Source: Candidatus Kaiserbacteria bacterium (lineage in GTDB: Bacteria; Patescibacteriota; Minisyncoccia; Phycocordibacterales; UBA12088). Taken from it: 35,496 nucleotides of DNA. The stretch covers positions 1 through 35,496 of the forward strand of contig SKIN01000044.1 of the NCBI GenBank assembly GCA_007116405.1, read 5' to 3'. The notes beneath the pieces are model-generated. The model worked only from the letters and a program-made list of their open reading frames with translations, was not told where the DNA came from and searched no databases. The number at the start of each line of letters is the position of its first letter. Positions within the stretch are counted from its first letter, which is position 1. Of this stretch, positions 15,157 through 35,228 are shown piece by piece. The position numbers and the translations under genes were made by a program.

Positions 15157-15315
15157 AACACACCCATTATTGCACGTTTTGGGTCGCAGCACTGACTTTA
15201 TCCCCAAATGCATTGGGTCATATCGGAAACAGCTCGCGGAAGCGGTAAGAACTAACATGTCGAAGGACGACGGCATTTACAAAGTATTCAATTCAATGGT
15301 ACTATCTCACGCACA

Positions 15316-15398
15316 GCGTCGGTGGCGGAGTGGTCAATCGCACTTGGCTGTAAACCAAGCGGCTTCGGCCTACGGGGGTTCGAATCCCTCCCGGCGCA
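15316..15398 (+). tRNA. tRNA-Tyr (anticodon GUA)
   Basis: Acceptor GCGTCGG/CCGGCGC (one G-U pair), anticodon loop CTGTAAA, long variable arm, T loop TTCGAAT, discriminator A. Confidence 0.9.
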
Positions 15399-15401
15399 CA
15401 A

Positions 15402-15432
15402 ACAAAACCCTGCGTATGCAGGGTTTTTGTGT
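15402..15432. terminator. Bidirectional terminator hairpin; copy 1 of a 31-nt direct repeat
   Basis: ACAAAACCCTGC-GTAT-GCAGGGTTTTTGTGT, identical to 15648-15678. Confidence 0.75.
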
Positions 15433-15597
15433 GGGCGACGGGAAGTATGGTGCCTAAGCACCATACGTGGGATTCGAACGGCCGGAGTCATGTTCCGAGT
15501 GAAGCGAGGAACGGACGAGGCCCGTCCAGCGGCACTTGTGAGATGAGCGGCTTTGCCGCGAAGCGAGCTAGTGACCGCGGGATCAATCCCTTCTCTG
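15433..15597. ncRNA. Unclassified structured element E1, homologous to 34830-35006 (strand unresolved)
   Basis: Non-coding gap between two copies of the same terminator. Several local perfect hairpins (15445-15466, GTTCC/GGAAC, GCGGC/GCCGC, GGGA/TCCC). Contains a tRNA-like GGGATTCGAA block (TTCGAATCCC on the other strand). Shares ordered sequence blocks with E2. Confidence 0.4.
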
Positions 15598-15647
15598 ATA
15601 AACCATTAGTATATGGCAGTCAGAAATTAATTGGATCATAGCAACAC

Positions 15648-15678
15648 ACAAAACCCTGCGTATGCAGGGTTTTTGTGT
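15648..15678. terminator. Bidirectional terminator hairpin; copy 2 of the 31-nt direct repeat (also serves clpB)
   Basis: Identical to 15402-15432. Lies 19 nt past the clpB stop. Confidence 0.75.
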
Positions 15679-15696: not shown

Positions 15697-18396
15697 CTAC
15701 GCCCCTGTAATCTGATACGGTCGTATAGCGCTTGGACGTGCCTTGCCCCGCCCTTTCTTTACATCAAAGATAATCTCGTCCTTCTTCATTGCCACCGTTA
15801 TCGAGCCGCCTTCTTTGACACCGTTACTGACCATCATGGAGGCAACAGGAGTGAGTATCTTGTTTTGGATAAGACGCTTCATCGGGCGAGCACCGTAGTG
15901 CGGGTCATAGCCTTCCTTTGCAAGGTAATCCACAACCTCATCAGTTACCGTAAGTTGTATCTCGCGCTCAGACAGACGCTTGGCAACAATATCTATCTGC
16001 ATTCGGGCGATGTCATGCACCACATCCGGCGTAAGGATGTTGAAGAGTAGTATCTCATCAAGACGGTTGAGGAATTCTGGTCGGAAGAAATCCTTAAGGG
16101 AATCCATCACCTTACTCTTCGCATGTTCATAGTCGGCGCTCTCTCCGGTGTCGGCACTAAAGCCCATCCTACTCATGCGGTCGATGTGCTCCGCTCCAAT
16201 GTTTGAGGTCAAGATGATGACCGCATTCTTGAAATTGACCACCCTGCCCTTGGCGTCGGTCAAGTGCCCGTTGTCTAAGACTTGCAGGAGGATGTTGAAT
16301 ACCTCCGGATGCGCTTTCTCCACTTCGTCAAAGAGAAGGACAGAGTATGGACGATGACGTACGGTCTCGGTAAGGTTGCCACCCTCTTCGTAACCAACAT
16401 ACCCTGCCGGTGCACCGATGATCTTTGAAACACTGTGACGCTCCATGTACTCACTCATATCCACCCGTATCAGCGCCTTTTCATCGTCAAACATGAACTC
16501 TGCGAGGGCTTTGGAAAGCTCGGTTTTACCCACACCTGTCGGACCCAAGAAGAGGAATGAACCGATGGGACGATTGGGGTCGGATATACCGGTGCGGGAA
16601 CGGCGCACGGCGTCCGCTATCTTCTGAACCGCATCATCTTGGCCTCGCACGCGCCGCTTCAGCTCATCTTCCATGCGTGATAGCTTCGACGCTTCTTCCT
16701 CGAGCATGCGCGCTACAGGCACTCCGGTCCATCGACTTACTACGTCGGCAATGTCCGCCTCGGTTATCTCCTCTTTGAGGATGCGACGTGTACGTTGCAG
16801 CTTCTTCATGCGCTTCACGTTCGTATCGAGTTCCTTCTCGAGGCCGGGGATAGTACCGTAGCGTATCTCGGCCGCCTTGCTTAGGTCTGCGGCCGCCTCC
16901 GCATTGTCGGCTTCCACGCGCTGTTGTTCGAGGTCCTTCTTGATGCGCTTTATCTCCTTCAGGGTGTCCTTTTCGTTGGTCCACTTCACTTCAAGTTCGC
17001 GGGTCTTCTCACGGAGCGAGCTTATCTCGCTTTCTATTGCACCAAGACGTGTTCTGGCTTTTTTACTGGTCGCATTCGAACTTGATTCTTCAGCGTCCTT
17101 TTTCAGTGCCTCTTTCTCTATTTCCAGGCGCATTATCTTGCGATGCGTCTCTTCAAGGACTGGCGGCTTATTCTCAAGGGCGATACGCAGTGCTGATGCC
17201 GCCTCGTCGATGAGGTCGATGGCCTTGTCCGGCAAGAACCGTTCGGTGACGTAACGCGCGGAAAGATGCGCCGCGGCAACGATAGCGTCGTCGGTAATGC
17301 GCACGCCGTGGTACACCTCGTACCGTTCACGAAGGCCACGCAATATTGCGATAGCGTCCTCCAATGAGGGTTCATTTACTCGCACGGGTTGGAAGCGACG
17401 TGTAAGTGCCTGGTCTTTTTCAAAGTGCTTCTGATACTCTTTTGTTGTCGTAGCACCTATTACCCGCAGTTCTCCGCGAGCCAAAGCCGGCTTGAGGAGG
17501 TTTGCTGCATCAATGGCTCCCTCGGCACCTCCGGCACCGATAAGGGTGTGTATTTCGTCTATGAATAAGATGACGTGACCGTTTGAACGCTCAATTTCCC
17601 GCATGACATTCTTCAGGCGATCCTCGAATTCCCCGCGGTACTTTGTGCCCGCCACCAAAAGGCCGAGGTCGAGCGACACGAGCTCCTTACCACGCATGCT
17701 CTCCGGAACCTCACCCGCAGCCATGCGAACAGCAAGACCCTCGGCGATAGCGGTCTTACCCACACCCGCCTCACCAATGAGGATGGGGTTATTTTTCGTG
17801 CGACGTGAGAGTATCTGGATGACGCGCGTGATCTCCGCATCTCTGCCGATGACCGGGTCGAGTTTGTTTTCTCCCGCAAGCTGCGTAAGGGAGCGCGTGT
17901 ACTTTGCGAGTGCCCGGGACTTCTTCGGCTGGTCTCCGCCCTCTTCCTCGGCACTGCGTGTCTCCTGCAATGCGCGTGTCACCGCTTCGCGCTCGAATGA
18001 GTAGCGCGCGAGGACTTCACCCGCTGGCCCGGGGGTGTCGAGTATGGCGAGAAACAAGTGTTCGGTGCCCACGAACTGGTCGTTCATTGACGCGGCCACT
18101 TTGCCGGCATTCTCAAGGACCTGCGCCAACTCGGGCGTCAGGTAGAGCTGGTAGCTCGGTGAGAGTACAGTGGCGTTCTCCGGTGATTCAAGTGCATCAA
18201 GTATCGAATCGGTCAGCGCTATGATGTCGACATTGAGACGCTCGAGGAGCGAAAACACGATACCCTCCTCTTGGAGGACGACCGCGGCGAGGAGGTGAAG
18301 CGGATTTACGTGGTTCTGGCCACGCTCAACCGCCAGTTCGTGTGAACGCCGAACTGCTTCTTTTGCTTTTGGGGTGAAATTTTGAAACGGTACCAT
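15697..18396 (-). CDS. clpB: ATP-dependent chaperone ClpB
   Basis: 899 aa. Clp N domain, two AAA+ modules ([20 protein letters not shown]) and a long coiled-coil middle domain. Confidence 0.95.
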
Positions 18397-21568: not shown

Positions 21569-21584
21569 TACACTTGCGTGCATG

Positions 21585-21656
21585 GGCCTGGTGGCGAAGT
21601 GGTAACGCTTCGGTCTGCAAAACCGACATGCGCGGGTTCGATTCCCGCCCAGGCCT
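21585..21656 (+). tRNA. tRNA-Cys (anticodon GCA)
   Basis: Acceptor GGCCTGG/CCAGGCC, anticodon loop CTGCAAA, T arm GCGGG-TTCGATT-CCCGC, discriminator U. Confidence 0.9.
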
Positions 21657-21719
21657 CCCGATATCCGGTGCACGCCGTGCCATACGTGTGTTCGAGCGAG
21701 TGCCAGGGTGTTCGGTACT

Positions 21720-21804
21720 GCCCGGGTGGTGAAATTGGTATACACGCGAGACTTAAAATTTCGTGCCGCAAGGCATGCGGGTTCGACCCCCGCCCCGGGC
21801 ACCA
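21720..21804 (+). tRNA. tRNA-Leu (anticodon UAA), CCA encoded
   Basis: Acceptor GCCCGGG/CCCGGGC, anticodon loop CTTAAAA, long variable arm, 3' end ACCA. Confidence 0.9.
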
Positions 21805-21866
21805 TATATCCCACTGGGCACAAAGCGGGTTTACATTCGTGTGGATTCGTTCTAGACTGTCGCAAT

Positions 21867-21939
21867 CCGCCCATAGCTCAGTTGGTAGAGCAGTCGGCTC
21901 TTAACCGAACGGTCGGGGGTTCGAATCCCTCTGGGCGGA
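21867..21939 (+). tRNA. tRNA-Lys (anticodon CUU)
   Basis: D arm GCTCAGTTGGTAGAGC, anticodon loop CTCTTAA, T loop TTCGAAT, acceptor CCGCCCA/TGGGCGG (C1-G72). Confidence 0.85.
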
Positions 21940-21967
21940 CTAGATTGGTAATACGTATATACAATAC

Positions 21968-22049
21968 GGGCGAGTGGCGGAATTGGTATACGCGCTAGCC
22001 TTAGGAGCTAGTGCCGCAAGGCTTGAGGGTTCAAGTCCCTCCTCGCCCA
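21968..22049 (+). tRNA. tRNA-Leu (anticodon UAG)
   Basis: Acceptor GGGCGAG/CTCGCCC, anticodon loop CTTAGGA, long variable arm, T arm GAGGG-TTCAAGT-CCCTC. Confidence 0.9.
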
Positions 22050-22105
22050 CACTGTCAAAAGGTGACACCTATCACCTGGTACCCATCAGTGATCCCCACC
22101 AACGA

Positions 22106-22483
22106 TCATTGGAGAGGAAGGTCTGCCGGTAGGTCAGAACCGGTGATGCCGAACGTGAGAAGTACCATTTGTATTATCGCAAAGACTGAGACCATCACCA
22201 CCATACCAATGGTACCCCAAACCATATGTTGTTTTCCAGCAGCGCGCCCTGATTCGTCTCCTGCGTTTAGAATAAAGGTGAGTAGACCATAGAGGAAGTA
22301 CACAAGGGCTAGTGCAAATATCACCCCGATAATGGGATTGATAATGTTATCCGACACTTTCGTCATGAATTCGACGGTTGCCGGAGGAACGGTGTTGTCC
22401 ATAGGAAAATCGGGGAAAGAGCCGTCTAATGCATGGGCCACCTTCGCACTAGAGCTCTGTACACCCTGAAATAGGCTGATCAT
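22106..22483 (-). CDS. Small TrbC/VirB2-like (pilin-like) membrane protein, paralog 1
   Basis: 125 aa with two TM helices flanking FILNAGDESGRAAGKQHMVWG, a motif shared with the four upstream paralogs. Confidence 0.6.
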   Translation of the reverse strand: MISLFQGVQSSSAKVAHALDGSFPDFPMDNTVPPATVEFMTKVSDNIINPIIGVIFALALVYFLYGLLTFILNAGDESGRAAGKQHMVWGTIGMVVMVSVFAIIQMVLLTFGITGSDLPADLPLQ

Positions 22484-22538
22484 GATATGTCACAAGTATA
22501 CACGGTGACGCGAACGTACCGCAAACTATCTTATACAC

Positions 22539-22563
22539 AAAAACACGGCTGTGCCGTGTTTTT
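22539..22563. terminator. Bidirectional terminator between pilin-like paralogs 2 and 1
   Basis: AAAAACACGGC-TGT-GCCGTGTTTTT. Confidence 0.65.
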
Positions 22564-22586
22564 GTGGCAGAGTAACAAAACTCTTA

Positions 22587-22946
22587 CTAGGCACCAGGAA
22601 TTGCAGGTAGATCTGCGCTGCCACCTGTGTCGACACCGGTGAGCTGCGCGAGAAGATTTACAAGTCCCCATACTGCTACGATAACGAAGAGTGCGATAAC
22701 ACCCCATATCATCTTTCGCTTACCTTCCTCCTTTGCAGCCTCATCTCCGGAAGCAGCAATGTACTGCACGAGACCCCAGATGAAGAACAAGAGACCCAAG
22801 GCAATGACAAGTGGTATCAAGAGGTTGACGACATCCTGAATCCCCTCGACAAGCGTCTCGAAGAAACTGAGGTCTGGTGATGCTGCCAACACCATTACCG
22901 GCAGAAACATCATCCCAAATGGAATCGCTCTAGCTACTGTATTCAT
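22587..22946 (-). CDS. Small TrbC/VirB2-like membrane protein, paralog 2
   Basis: 119 aa, signal-like N terminus, motif YIAASGDEAAKEEGKRKMIWG between two TM helices. Confidence 0.6.
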   Translation of the reverse strand: MNTVARAIPFGMMFLPVMVLAASPDLSFFETLVEGIQDVVNLLIPLVIALGLLFFIWGLVQYIAASGDEAAKEEGKRKMIWGVIALFVIVAVWGLVNLLAQLTGVDTGGSADLPAIPGA

Positions 22947-23109
22947 ATGAATTATGATAATTTTTAACGTCTTCTAATAAATAACTATTGGTTCAGAGGG
23001 CTTATTCTCTGCTTAGGTACGAATTACGTACTTCACCTTACTAAGCATACCACATTTAATTGCCGCTATACACGCTGTCTGTGGATAATCGTGCACCTCA
23101 ACAAGATCG

Positions 23110-23490
23110 CTAACATGGCTCCATAGTGCCACCTCCGGACAGATCTATCTGAGGTGGTGGGCACCGATTGCCCCCAGGCTGGGACGCATCGACTCCAAAC
23201 AATTGTGTCAATAATGTTACCACACCCCAGACGGTCACAACTAGAAAAAGGCCCACAATACCCCATACCATCCGCTGCTTCCCCTCGGCTACACCTTTTT
23301 CATCTCCTGCATTCGCGATAAAGCGCACGAGACCCCATATGAATACAACAAGGGCTATACCGACCCCAACGGCAACAAACTGCCCCAATGCGATGGTAAT
23401 GAAGTGCAGTATGGTAAACGCTGTCACTTGCGCATGTGCAACACTTGATGTCAGAAAGGCGATAAGTAACAATGCAGGTACTATTTTCAT
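23110..23490 (-). CDS. Small TrbC/VirB2-like membrane protein, paralog 3
   Basis: 126 aa, signal peptide MKIVPALLLIAFLTSSVAHA, motif FIANAGDEKGVAEGKQRMVWG. Confidence 0.6.
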   Translation of the reverse strand: MKIVPALLLIAFLTSSVAHAQVTAFTILHFITIALGQFVAVGVGIALVVFIWGLVRFIANAGDEKGVAEGKQRMVWGIVGLFLVVTVWGVVTLLTQLFGVDASQPGGNRCPPPQIDLSGGGTMEPC

Positions 23491-23496
23491 ATGGTG

Positions 23497-23832
23497 TTAT
23501 GCTGAGCCGAAAAAAGTTGCGTAAATGATCCTTACAACACCCCATATGCCAACCATCATGAATAGAGAAAGGACGCCCCACACCATGACCTGCTTTCCTT
23601 CAGACCTTGCTCTTTCGTCTCCCGACCCCGCTATGAAGCGAATGGCTCCGTATATGAACGCGAGTACCGCCAATACCATCAGAAGCGTTACCACGAGACT
23701 CAAGAGGGCCATCGCTATTTCAGCGACAGTCTTGAGGTCCGCTGGTCCGGCATAGGCCGCCACAGGGACAGAGAGCGCCACAAAGATAGCTACCAACCCT
23801 TTCTTGTGAGATGTGATGTGGAGAGCGGACAT
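23497..23832 (-). CDS. Small TrbC/VirB2-like membrane protein, paralog 4
   Basis: 111 aa from MSALHITS; this start avoids overlap with paralog 5. Motif FIAGSGDERARSEGKQVMVWG. Confidence 0.6.
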   Translation of the reverse strand: MSALHITSHKKGLVAIFVALSVPVAAYAGPADLKTVAEIAMALLSLVVTLLMVLAVLAFIYGAIRFIAGSGDERARSEGKQVMVWGVLSLFMMVGIWGVVRIIYATFFGSA

Positions 23833-23836
23833 GATA

Positions 23837-24169
23837 TCAGAAAGACTGTATCGTGCCCTTGATAGCAAGGGCAAGTGCCTTCGAACCCAGGACCACGAGC
23901 GCGCCTATTACTGTCCATATCAACGCCCTACGGGCCTCCTGCAACTTTGTGGGGTTCCCTTGAGCCGCAACAAATAAGAAGCCGGTGTACACTATCATGA
24001 GCACAATGATAGGGTACATGATGTATACGACCACATTAAGTATTGCAAGTAAAAATTCTTCCAACGTGTCAGATTGAAGGGGGTTTTCAAACTGTCCATG
24101 CACGAAAACGGTCGACGGCACTAACGCGATTGATAGAACACTTAGGAGGAATCTCTTCAATGTAGCCAT
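23837..24169 (-). CDS. Small TrbC/VirB2-like membrane protein, paralog 5 (most divergent)
   Basis: 110 aa, signal-like N terminus, motif FVAAQGNPTKLQEARRALIWT in the same topology. Confidence 0.5.
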   Translation of the reverse strand: MATLKRFLLSVLSIALVPSTVFVHGQFENPLQSDTLEEFLLAILNVVVYIMYPIIVLMIVYTGFLFVAAQGNPTKLQEARRALIWTVIGALVVLGSKALALAIKGTIQSF

Positions 24170-24187
24170 ACTATGGGTTGTTCCACA

Positions 24188-31588: not shown

Positions 31589-31689
31589 GATATCCGTGGT
31601 GTGTGGGATAACGATACCACAGATAGCGGGTACAGTGGCACCGTGCTGTTGCTATTCCTAGTAGGATTCTTGTGTGGTATAATAATACA

Positions 31690-32102
31690 GGCCGTACCGG
31701 ATGGTTACGCCCTTTCAGGGTGAGGAAAGTCCGAACACACCCGGGCACAAGTCCGGAGCACGGTAGTGGGTAACACCCATCGTTCGCTTCGGCGGATAGG
31801 GATGCGAGCAGAGACGCCCAAGCTGAGAGGCGCGGGTACCCGCAAGGGTAAGCCCTTACGGAAACGTAAGGGGTGAAACGGCAAAATTCCTACCTGTGTG
31901 CAAGGCCGTGTCCGACACCACTTTAGTCGTTCAAGTCTGAGAGTTTTGCAATACTGCGTTAGTTGCTATTGCATAACTGATACGTTGTTGAACTACCAAA
32001 GTGGTGTCGGAAGAGCCGCTTGACCCCATGAGTAATTGTGGGGCTAGATATATGACCATCGCCTGCTTATAGCGGGTACAGAATTCGGCTTATAGGTACG
32101 GC
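31690..32102 (+). ncRNA. rnpB: RNase P RNA (bacterial type)
   Basis: P1 pairing GGCCGTACC (31690) with GGTACGGCC (32094). Universal P4 blocks GAGGAAAGTCCG and ACAGAATTCGGCTTATAG are present. A terminator follows at 32111-32133. Confidence 0.9.
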
Positions 32103-32110
32103 CAATACCA

Positions 32111-34763: not shown

Positions 34764-34829
34764 ATACGAAAGCATGTATTCATCCGTTATTGGCGACCTG
34801 ATGTGCCGTAGCTCCCTTCAGCGAGCGAA

Positions 34830-35006
34830 GGCGGAGAGGGAGGTTTCGTCCCAGAATCACGGCTGTTTGTTTCGTCTACGACTCACAAACAGACTCGTGT
34901 TCTTGGACGGCTCCTCGAATTTCATTCGCCTCGACGGCTCATGAAATAATCTCCGGAGCTTCGAATCCCTCACGCGAGCAAAGCAGTTTGCTCGCTCCTC
35001 TCCGCC
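34830..35006. ncRNA. Unclassified structured element E2, homologous to 15433-15597 (strand unresolved)
   Basis: A 10-bp closing helix pairs GGCGGAGAGG (34830-34839) with CCTCTCCGCC (34997-35006). Internal perfect hairpins are CTGTTTGT/ACAAACAG, ATTTCAT/ATGAAAT and GCGAGCAAA/TTTGCTCGC. Contains a TTCGAATCCC block. No plausible ORF. Confidence 0.45.
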
Positions 35007-35010
35007 CAAG

Positions 35011-35038
35011 AAAATAACCACCTGGCGGTGGTATTTTC
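35011..35038. terminator. Bidirectional terminator between E2 and tRNA-Ser
   Basis: AAAATAACCACC-TGGC-GGTGGTATTTT. Confidence 0.7.
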
Positions 35039-35044
35039 TACGGG

Positions 35045-35131
35045 CGGAGAGGGAGGGATTCGAACCCTCGAGGGAGTTTCCCCCCTACTCGCGTTCCAGG
35101 CGAGCGCCTTCGACCACTCAGCCACCTCTCC
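35045..35131 (-). tRNA. tRNA-Ser (anticodon GGA)
   Basis: Acceptor GGAGAGG/CCTCTCC, D arm GCTGAGTGGTCGAAGGC, anticodon loop CTGGAAC, long variable arm, T arm GAGGG-TTCGAAT-CCCTC, discriminator G. Confidence 0.9.
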
Positions 35132-35228
35132 GTTATGTGATTGTCTTATTTCTAGCCTATCGCAGCCGGCACGGCACCACTATACCATGCAAAGGGCGGC
35201 TTGGATAAGCCGCCCGTGGATGAGGTGG

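Follow-up and report, generated by a model that had tools for sequence, protein, structure and literature searches.

A 35,496-nt stretch of Patescibacteria DNA (the window, with positions counted from its first letter) carries two noncoding elements, E1 and E2, located behind a tRNA-Tyr gene and a tRNA-Ser gene, respectively. Judged by sequence comparison, both are divergent members of a large family of structured elements that flank tRNA genes throughout the Patescibacteria, and whose members share a fold, a strand, a position, a duplication of the tRNA 3' end and an asymmetry between the two copies of that end. The explanation that the evidence somewhat favors is that these are structured RNA elements of 75-190 nt, located 3' of tRNA or tmRNA genes, which would retain the footprint of an insertion and would be transcribed by read-through. 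A sequence-only reading of the window had suggested either a new tRNA-like family of small RNAs or a nonautonomous element targeting tRNA 3' ends; this interpretation proves essentially right, and is supported by the homologs described below and by the duplication that accompanies them.

The assignment of E1 and E2 to the family relies on a covariance model (R1) built from an alignment of 105 copies taken from other genomes only, with no sequence from the window. In searches with filters off, the two best matches of R1 in the window are E1 (15465-15594, plus strand; 21.9 bits, E = 1.5e-5) and E2 (34973-34837, minus strand; 13.8 bits, E = 0.0095), both full-length, followed by a partial 9-bit match on a terminator. 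R1 recovers 16 elements in 620 kb of Patescibacteria loci surrounding clpB, which hold 91 tRNA genes (two elements for nine tRNA genes in the window), and returns no match in 692 kb of tRNA-rich loci of other phyla. A core pattern derived from the clpB-locus elements, GCCGGAR-N(4-34)-GAGGCNGGGTCG-N(15-45)-GACCGA, was found at more than 120 loci in species-representative genomes. Manual inspection of 120 fetched loci left about 103 true copies, the other 17 or so being GC-rich chance matches, and among the matches listed the true loci come almost entirely from metagenome-assembled genomes (MAGs) of Patescibacteria. A few true copies lie on contigs labelled as Elusimicrobiales, Bdellovibrionales and Gammaproteobacteria MAGs (L225, L253, L278, L271), which could be mis-binned Patescibacteria contigs or could reflect a wider host range.

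The homologs also bear out the proposal that the element occupies a fixed place relative to a tRNA gene and its terminator, since they flank tRNA genes and are bracketed by the duplicated tRNA 3' end. Of the 126 listed pattern matches, 80 have a same-strand tRNA gene no more than 250 nt ahead of them (74 of them no more than 120 nt). The copies lie 20-108 nt behind tRNA genes, and the listed matches involve tRNA genes for 17 amino acids (Leu, Gly, Ser, Arg, Val, Tyr, Glu, Trp, Ala, Met, Asp, Lys, Cys, Phe, Ile, Asn and Gln) as well as one tmRNA gene. In several relatives there is no terminator between the tRNA gene and the element. Exact patterns specific to the E1/E2 subtype were less productive: a GGGATTCGAANNNCCGGAG scan of genome contigs returned only reverse complements of tRNA T-arms, and the combination of GGGATTCGAANNNCCGGAG with CCGTCCA yielded only chance or tRNA matches in genome, metagenome and viral collections; at the level of exact patterns, those collections contain neither the source genome nor the E1/E2 subtype.

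Read in the sense of the tRNA, an element of 75-190 nt comprises two arms and a core that forms a three-way junction of helices P3, P4 and P5. A left module, when there is one, consists of a terminator, an AAUGAUC... hairpin or a GCGAAGCGA mini-hairpin. The 5' arm is complementary to the tRNA 3' end, its segment G1 pairing with the acceptor 3' strand and its segment G2 with the T-loop and the 3' strand of the T-stem. A hairpin, P2, splits this arm at the acceptor/T junction in many copies; its apical consensus (CAAACUGCUUUG) recurs across genomes and its lower stem covaries. The arm is followed by a UCGAARG or GAGAARG junction (an AUUCGAA variant in E1 and E2), by P4 (GCC-GGA-hairpin-GA-GGC), by two junction nucleotides (RG) and by P5 (GGUCG...bulged A...GUGACC, with a fixed G.U pair). 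Finally, the 3' arm is a direct copy of the tRNA from C56 of the T-loop to about C74, and provides the 3' strand of the closing helix P3, which is extended by P1. Within this scheme, E1 and E2 constitute a divergent subtype with long P4 and P5.

That this is a functional fold, as the sequence-only reading had held, is supported by strong covariation over more than 100 homologs and by the folding of E2 itself, whose minimum free energy (MFE) lies well below that of shuffled sequences (z = -7.8). In an alignment of 105 distinct copies, P3, P4 and P5 are paired in 90% of cells, a share that drops to 35-43% on sliding the partners by 1-3 columns; double-change cells number 556, against 80-142 in the slid controls, and none of 500 shuffles reached the covariation score. 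Because the search pattern fixed the invariant stems, these carry no information, and it is the variable stems that hold the signal. One variable pair of P5, for instance, is GC in 43 copies, AU in 34 and CG in 24. Another P5 pair is G.U in 103 of the 105 copies and neighbors a pair that is GC in 46, GU in 39 and AU in 15, indicating that the structured strand is the tRNA-sense strand. In the arm helix, wobble pairs show a weak excess over A.C mismatches (odds ratio 1.56, p = 0.03). E1 also folds better than its shuffles, with z = -3.9 on the plus strand and z = -2.0 on the minus strand.

All the repeats and pairings first described for E2 are present in the window, as is its homology to E1. 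The 14-nt sequence GGCGGAGAGGGAGG occurs exactly twice, at 34830-34843 and at 35043-35056, the latter copy being the 3' end of the minus-strand tRNA-Ser(GGA) gene; when up to two mismatches are allowed there are three matches, a number that no shuffle reaches (shuffle mean 0.21). Likewise, TTCGAATCCCTC at 34960-34971 is mirrored within the tRNA-Ser gene by GAGGGATTCGAA at 35053-35064. A 10-bp end pairing joins 34830-34839 with 34997-35006, and a perfect 9-bp hairpin is formed by 34974-34982 and 34987-34995. On the minus strand, G1 of E2 is the complement of the acceptor 3' strand, discriminator and trailer of tRNA-Ser, and pairs with the 3' arm to form P1, G2 is the complement of the T-stem 3' strand and T-loop, and the 3' arm CCUCCCUCUCCGCC supplies the 3' strands of both P3 and P1. 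The spacer, the tRNA-Ser 3' end and the E2 5' arm together make up one long palindrome (inverted repeat 34997-35022/35027-35052). Additionally, the 3' trailer of E2 at 34820-34829 (UUCGCUCGCU on the minus strand) is 90% complementary to the 5' strand of P2 (34987-34996), and it is possible that an alternative structure exists in which the trailer replaces the 3' strand of P2.

The minus strand of E2 aligns with the plus strand of E1, with GGGATTCGAA, CCGGAG, CCGTCCA and GTGA among the common blocks. On either side of E1 lies one copy of a 35-nt direct repeat formed by the tRNA-Tyr terminator (15398-15432 and 15644-15678), a feature that the sequence-only reading had missed. Both E1, on the plus strand, and E2, on the minus strand, therefore run from tRNA to terminator to element on the strand of the tRNA. 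The distal terminator also ends the convergent clpB gene (15697-18396, minus strand). A sigma-70-like promoter match precedes tRNA-Tyr(GUA) at 15276-15305, and a scan of the window gave no promoter-like site ahead of E1 or E2. The comparison of the bases GGTTTCGTC with the D-loop analog of tmRNA is not supported: it depends on the plus strand of E2, whereas the informative strand is the minus strand, that of the tRNA, and neither ARAGORN nor Rfam calls a tmRNA there.

A further claim was that the 9-bp hairpin, differing in sequence at the same position of E1 and E2, amounts to covariation. Two copies alone are weak evidence for this; the claim is backed by a third variant in a related strain and by the recurrence of P2 hairpins elsewhere in the family. 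E2 is also found on two contigs (L121 and L122) that encode an identical neighboring 250-aa protein, and these strain alleles have a common core with differing left parts. Over the stretch from GGGATTCGAA to the downstream gene, L121 and the window differ at three positions only. The whole segment between the tRNA end and GGGATTCGAA has been replaced in L121: the terminator is lacking, the P2 position is occupied by a different 9-bp hairpin (GCAAAGCGC/GCGCTTTGC), and the pairing of the 5' strand with the 3' arm is shifted in register. Hairpin position and end pairing have therefore been maintained while their sequence was swapped, and the P2 stem of E2 is unlike that of either L121 or E1. In L122, the element and the terminator are the same as in the window, but the preceding gene is tRNA-Ser(GCU) (L122 1890-1980, compared with 35042-35132 in the window). 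The arms of this copy nevertheless match the GGA isoacceptor, which suggests recombination between tRNA-Ser genes at this locus.

tRNA-Tyr adjoins clpB in 63 of 80 related genomes, and many of the clpB-linked genomes carry the same kind of element behind tRNA-Tyr or behind a nearby tRNA-Trp, with a patchy distribution at the syntenic clpB-tRNA-Tyr locus. In the closest relative at the E1 locus (L137, ClpB 88% identical), only a remnant of about 40 nt and a 17-nt repeat are left. In a Parcubacteria MAG (L141 7650-8300, minus strand), several tandem E-like modules with CCGUCCAAGAA...AUUCUGGGAC hairpins are found behind tRNA-Tyr, and these belong to the subtype closest to P5 of E2.

Coordinates of E1, E2 and their flanking features in the window
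Feature	Position	Strand	Basis
tRNA-Tyr(GUA), gene preceding E1	15316..15399	+	ARAGORN; Rfam
Terminator hairpin behind tRNA-Tyr, first copy of the 35-nt direct repeat	15398..15432	+	direct repeat, 97% identity
E1, whole element	15433..15597	+	R1 match; fold; alignment with E2
E1 G1, imperfect complement of the tRNA-Tyr 3' end	15433-15444	+	
E1 P2	15445-15466	+	
E1 P3, GGGAUU paired with AAUCCC	15469-15474 with 15585-15590	+	
E1 P4, GGCC-GGA-...-GA-GGCC	15480-15522	+	
E1 P5	15524-15583	+	
E1 decayed 3' arm	15591-15597	+	
Second terminator copy, closing the putative E1 insertion	15644..15678	+	direct repeat
tRNA-Ser(GGA), gene preceding E2; its 3' end is the proximal 14-nt copy	35042..35132	-	ARAGORN; Rfam tRNA 57.9 bits
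Spacer with terminator-like hairpin (stem 35017-35032) between tRNA-Ser and E2	35013..35041	-	terminator scan
E2 5' arm, part 1 (G1), GGGCGGAGAGG	34997..35007	-	inverted repeat; MFE fold
E2 P2, 9-bp hairpin with CUGC loop, within the 5' arm exactly at the acceptor/T-stem junction	34974..34995	-	inverted repeat
E2 5' arm, part 2 (G2, P3 5' strand), GAGGGAUUCGAA	34960..34971	-	inverted repeat; R1 positions 5-15
E2 P4, GCUCC-GGA-hairpin-GA-GGAGC, with the GGA/GA internal loop of the family	34910..34959	-	MFE fold; R1 alignment; family covariation of outer/inner stems
E2 P5, long hairpin CGUCC...GGACG	34847..34909	-	MFE fold; R1 alignment
E2 AAA and 3' arm CCUCCCUCUCCGCC, distal direct copy of the tRNA-Ser 3' end (14-nt repeat)	34830..34846	-	direct repeat

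An insertion history is moderately supported by the form of the tRNA duplication, by tandem arrays, by copies with cargo or at topA, and by the patchy distribution, the L137 remnant and the differing left parts of strain alleles described above. In the proposed scenario, a small element without a protein gene would have inserted in the T-loop of a tRNA gene, leaving upstream a complete tRNA gene with a secondary 3' end and displacing the original 3' end beyond the element. From its start at C56, the direct repeat extends over a median of 19 nt (positions 56 to 74). It is 15 nt or longer in 46 of 74 cases, and inclusion of a terminator or of a second unit gives rise to a tail of 45-91 nt. Of 166 tRNA genes that lack an element, 45 encode CCA (27%); the corresponding figures are 10 of 108 (9%) for the proximal copy of element-bearing genes and 13 of 45 (29%) for well-preserved distal copies. 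At 10 loci CCA is present on the distal copy only, and at none on the proximal copy only (about p = 0.002, simple binomial). Thus, the distal copy behaves as the original end of the gene and the proximal copy as a secondary one. Pairing with the tRNA 5' strand is always complete for the proximal copy, a property that is uninformative as to which copy is original. A distal arm made by retro-copying a mature tRNA was rejected, given that CCA occurs in distal copies at the background frequency instead of near 100%. In the Patescibacteria loci examined (L137-L336), nearly all tRNA genes have C at position 74, about 27% have a full CCA, and positions 74-76 read CAA roughly as often as CCA.

Other copies extend the range of arrangements. 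Two loci (L259 and L301) contain tandem arrays of identical units. At L242, the core lies 2.4 kb from tRNA-Ala, with the tRNA 3' part and the terminator repeated over at least 42 nt, and the intervening cargo includes a 183-aa open reading frame (ORF) without a Pfam match and a DnaJ-type zinc-finger protein; cargo also separates tRNA and core at L252 (0.75 kb) and L328 (1.4 kb). Two further copies are located behind topA, the gene for DNA topoisomerase I (L241 6525-6733 and L309 2699-2838), so that targets extend beyond tRNA genes. At L241, the duplication comprises about 40 nt of the topA 3' end, and the 5' arm is again complementary to the 3' arm.

As to expression, the element would be transcribed by read-through from the tRNA, with no promoter-like site of its own, and its ends could be defined by RNase Z, RNase P and the CCA-adding enzyme. 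The P1/P3 helix mimics the acceptor/T-arm minihelix of a tRNA, and tRNA-processing enzymes could for this reason recognize the ends of the element. The mobility of the element, its processing by tRNA enzymes and a guide function of its 5' arm are inferred.

A number of results weigh against insertion as the origin of the family or against its RNA nature. No protein family is enriched in a clustering of 1078 neighboring ORFs, among which there is no recurrent recombinase, transposase or reverse transcriptase, and large serine recombinases occur within a few kilobases at only 4 loci and Xer-like genes at 3. The core pattern has no match in viral contigs, nor does a BLAST search with a canonical copy match phage or plasmid records. 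No pair of empty and filled sites was found among close strains, and the copies that share a genome, E1 and E2 for example, are old and have diverged, leaving no recent transposition visible. Conservation of the core across classes also fits an RNA that benefits its host. Moreover, the 5' arm interleaves target-complementary segments with conserved segments of the element (P2 and GUG), a layout that a simple target duplication cannot generate and that implies an arm either selected to pair or acting as a guide. Finally, a single-stranded DNA structure on the same strand may also fit the sequence data. Regarding the flanks of the elements, Pfam searches of cargo and upstream ORFs gave only housekeeping genes, the DnaJ-type zinc finger and topA; E1 and E2 themselves are flanked by clpB, the 250-aa ORF (which has no Pfam hit) and tRNA genes, with no recombinase next to either in the window. 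A large serine recombinase gene, or a fragment of such a gene, reading towards the element lies 0.6-2.7 kb beyond it at L316 (5331-6965), L303 (1822-3363), L287 (79-1821) and L243 (3032-3667), and other integrative elements may use the same tRNA ends.

The alternative to be taken most seriously, possible and yet on balance unlikely, is a resident noncoding RNA of the host, i.e., a small RNA of tRNA operons that has a cellular role, such as regulating or buffering tRNA processing or mimicking an acceptor arm, and that does not move. Its arms would match the tRNA by functional mimicry and would be kept matched by gene conversion between the nearby repeats. A strongly conserved and covarying core across many Patescibacteria lineages, the constant use of the tRNA strand, the frequent lack of an intervening terminator and the absence of a linked mobility gene are all what such an RNA would show, and an E. 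coli element of the same architecture, RtT, is annotated as the small RNA RttR in the tyrT-tyrV operon region. Yet only a minority of tRNA genes have an element, the CCA asymmetry identifies the distal copy as the gene's original end, decay has affected many distal arms next to an intact core, and copies with cargo, tandem arrays and topA sites are hard to account for without movement. A second alternative, in which the elements would be inert scars of integrase-encoding islands or prophages, with the repeats as attL and attR and an interior left over after deletion, is improbable. It has in its favor that the repeats run from the T-loop to the tRNA end, as with T-loop-targeting integrases, that one copy closes a 2.4-kb island and that a few large serine recombinase genes are nearby. 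However, no leftover fragment would preserve a conserved three-way junction, with its hundreds of compensatory changes across more than 100 species, or recur as one core at 17 tRNA types, given the sequence specificity of integrases; a true attR has a T-stem-like arm abutting the T-loop, whereas 65-90 nt of core intervene here; and the viral, phage and plasmid collections contain nothing of the kind.

It is very improbable that E1 and E2 are degenerate tandem duplicates of a tRNA or members of an established tRNA-like class, for example tmRNA or Y RNA (YrlA). Their acceptor-like and T-stem-like pairings do use the sequence of the tRNA itself, and a weak match to tmRNA_permuted (14 bits), the only trace of a tmRNA given by Rfam, overlaps the end of tRNA-Ser. 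Nevertheless, no tmRNA is detected in the window by ARAGORN, the flanking genes are all that ARAGORN and the Rfam tRNA model report, and no tRNA, tmRNA or Y RNA is called at E1, E2 or a canonical relative (L250). The folds of E1 and E2 contain no T-loop hairpin, D arm and anticodon arm are missing as well, and the interior is the same conserved P4/P5 core regardless of the identity of the tRNA. At gathering thresholds, Rfam 15 reports only tRNAs and RNase P in the window; at E <= 10 it reports nothing relevant over E1, E2 or the canonical relative, Y RNA/YrlA, 6S and signal recognition particle RNA included, so that 6S and Y RNA are also ruled out. Other candidates were rejected on similar grounds: a group II intron (no Rfam intron match, a size of 75-190 nt and no ORF), an IS110-type element with a bridge RNA (no adjoining DEDD/IS110 recombinase gene and no recurrent neighbor) and a miniature inverted-repeat transposable element, because the arms copy each local tRNA and vary by site and the duplication ranges from 13 to over 60 nt instead of being fixed.

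The Rfam scan of both copies and of the canonical relative thus agrees with the statement that the element belongs to no known class. That statement requires one qualification, as E. coli RtT is a close architectural analog. In E. coli K-12 (NC_000913.3, 1286709-1287236), three 178-bp units lie behind tyrV, with RttR and tpr annotated inside, and a scan with RF00391 finds three RtT units at 134-138 bits with 178-nt spacing. Read in the tRNA sense, each unit consists of GGGGAAGGAU (the complement of the tRNA 3' part), GAGAAG, a structured interior and AAUCCUUCCCCCACCACCA (the last 19 nt of the tRNA), the units overlap tyrV by about 19 nt, and the Rfam consensus of RtT pairs the two arms as a closing helix. 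The complement of the tRNA-Tyr 3' end that precedes GAGAAG in each repeat, beyond the known 19-nt direct copy, gives the unit an arm-core-arm layout. Like the Patescibacteria elements, RtT follows a tRNA gene in the same orientation, and its end repeats about the last 19 nt of the tRNA, from T-loop to CCA; E2 correspondingly ends in its 14-nt copy, and the family in a median of 19 nt from C56. The closing helix of tRNA copy and upstream complement is present in E2, and the GAGAAG that follows the complement arm of RtT equals the GAUGAGAAG junction of many Patescibacteria copies (GAUGAGAA occurs in many relatives, but E1 and E2 have AUUCGAA in its place). In contrast, RF00391 (gathering threshold 45 bits) has no match to E1, E2 or the canonical relative at E <= 10, R1 has none at the E. 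coli locus, and the interior helices differ. RtT is moreover found behind tRNA-Tyr only, in the K-12 stretch examined, whereas the Patescibacteria family is found behind 17 tRNA types, a tmRNA gene and topA. By analogy, RtT is therefore the closest known element in architecture, a relationship of kind that does not extend to membership in RF00391. The function of RtT is likewise unsettled (PMC3318445; bioRxiv 10.1101/2024.07.17.603846). PMC3318445 describes it as the product of one repeated unit of the tyrT operon and attributes the RttR small RNA to the tyrT-tyrV operon (citing Bosl and Kersten, 1991). In a preprint, the RtT region is over-represented in exonuclease-resistant "mobilome" DNA under stress, an observation reported without an explanation (bioRxiv 10.1101/2024.07.17.603846). 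Literature searches found no prior description of the element family, a result that does not prove that there is none.

The proposed insertion history also invites comparison with better characterized systems. Integrative elements that target tRNA and tmRNA genes, such as genomic islands and cis-mobilizable elements (CIMEs), insert in the 3' part of the gene and regenerate it, generating direct repeats from the T-loop and displacing the original 3' end distally, with cargo between the repeats. The family resembles them in that direct repeats of the tRNA 3' end flank the insert and the original end is distal, with CCA asymmetry of 10 loci to 0. It differs from them in having no integrase within the element or consistently nearby, in measuring typically only 75-190 nt, in having a structured RNA core inside the T-loop of the would-be attR, and in placing one core family at many different tRNA species. 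A second comparison is provided by guide-bearing mobile RNAs, since group II introns, through pairing between exon-binding and intron-binding sites (EBS-IBS), and IS110 bridge RNAs are structured RNAs with segments complementary to the insertion target. The family similarly combines an RNA of 100-200 nt with a target complement, here G1 and G2 split by P2 and covering tRNA positions 56-74 and beyond, but lacks domain V, a reverse transcriptase, an adjoining DEDD recombinase and an Rfam match, and shows a target duplication that is not typical of group II introns or IS110. Lastly, tRNA-mimicking RNAs (the tRNA-like domain of tmRNA, viral tRNA-like structures, mascRNA) share with the family a coaxial helix resembling acceptor and T-stem up to the discriminator region, and the closing helix of the family could, by analogy, plausibly be cut by RNase P or RNase Z. 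Unlike these RNAs, the family has no elbow of T-loop and D-loop, and its helix is copied from, and varies with, each neighboring tRNA.

It is conceivable, if doubtful, that the family represents a mobile element without any protein gene in which the RNA itself picks the target. The bipartite 5' arm (G1-P2-G2) would then be a programmable guide for the last 19 nt or so of tRNAs, of tmRNA and of a few protein genes. Transcription of the tRNA would carry the element along, the RNA ends would be cut by RNase Z or RNase P by virtue of the minihelix mimicry, and an enzyme encoded by the host or in trans would copy the element back into T-loops. E. coli RtT would, in such a case, be a relic of the same class, and the family would represent an old and overlooked kind of bacterial element.

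Besides E1 and E2, the window encodes ClpB, GyrA, a short IF-2, a penicillin-binding protein, an RNase P RNA and nine tRNAs; it is part of a cellular Patescibacteria chromosome, not of a phage, and the relatives of its ClpB place it within the Parcubacteria/Paceibacteria group. The RNase P RNA (bacterial class A; 31689-32108, plus strand) scores only 110.7 bits for a gathering score of 100, and its alignment shows a long insertion, about 60 nt in length, in the P15-P18 region. None of the genes of a tight cluster of four tRNAs (Cys, Leu-UAA, Lys and Leu-UAG; 21584-22050, plus strand) is followed by an E-like element. Five consecutive small genes at about 22100-24170 on the minus strand, and at L123 4228-6291, carry the T4SS_pilin domain (PF18895); this run adjoins a gene for a solute-binding protein and gyrA.

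The genomes of Patescibacteria (candidate phyla radiation) are tiny and streamlined, and a share like that of the sampled clpB neighborhoods, 16 elements for 91 tRNA genes, would rank the element among their commonest noncoding features, one that is covered by no Rfam family. Such loci will be misread by tRNA-gene annotation and by finders of attachment sites or genomic islands, and R1 together with the core pattern allows them to be annotated. The family also provides a comparative context for the decades-old puzzle of the 178-bp repeats of E. coli tyrT and of the rtT RNA, and joins three themes that are usually separate, namely insertion targeted to tRNA genes, tRNA mimicry and guide-like complementarity. 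If the 5' arm does select the target, the family would constitute a new class of RNA-directed elements that operate without an element-encoded protein.

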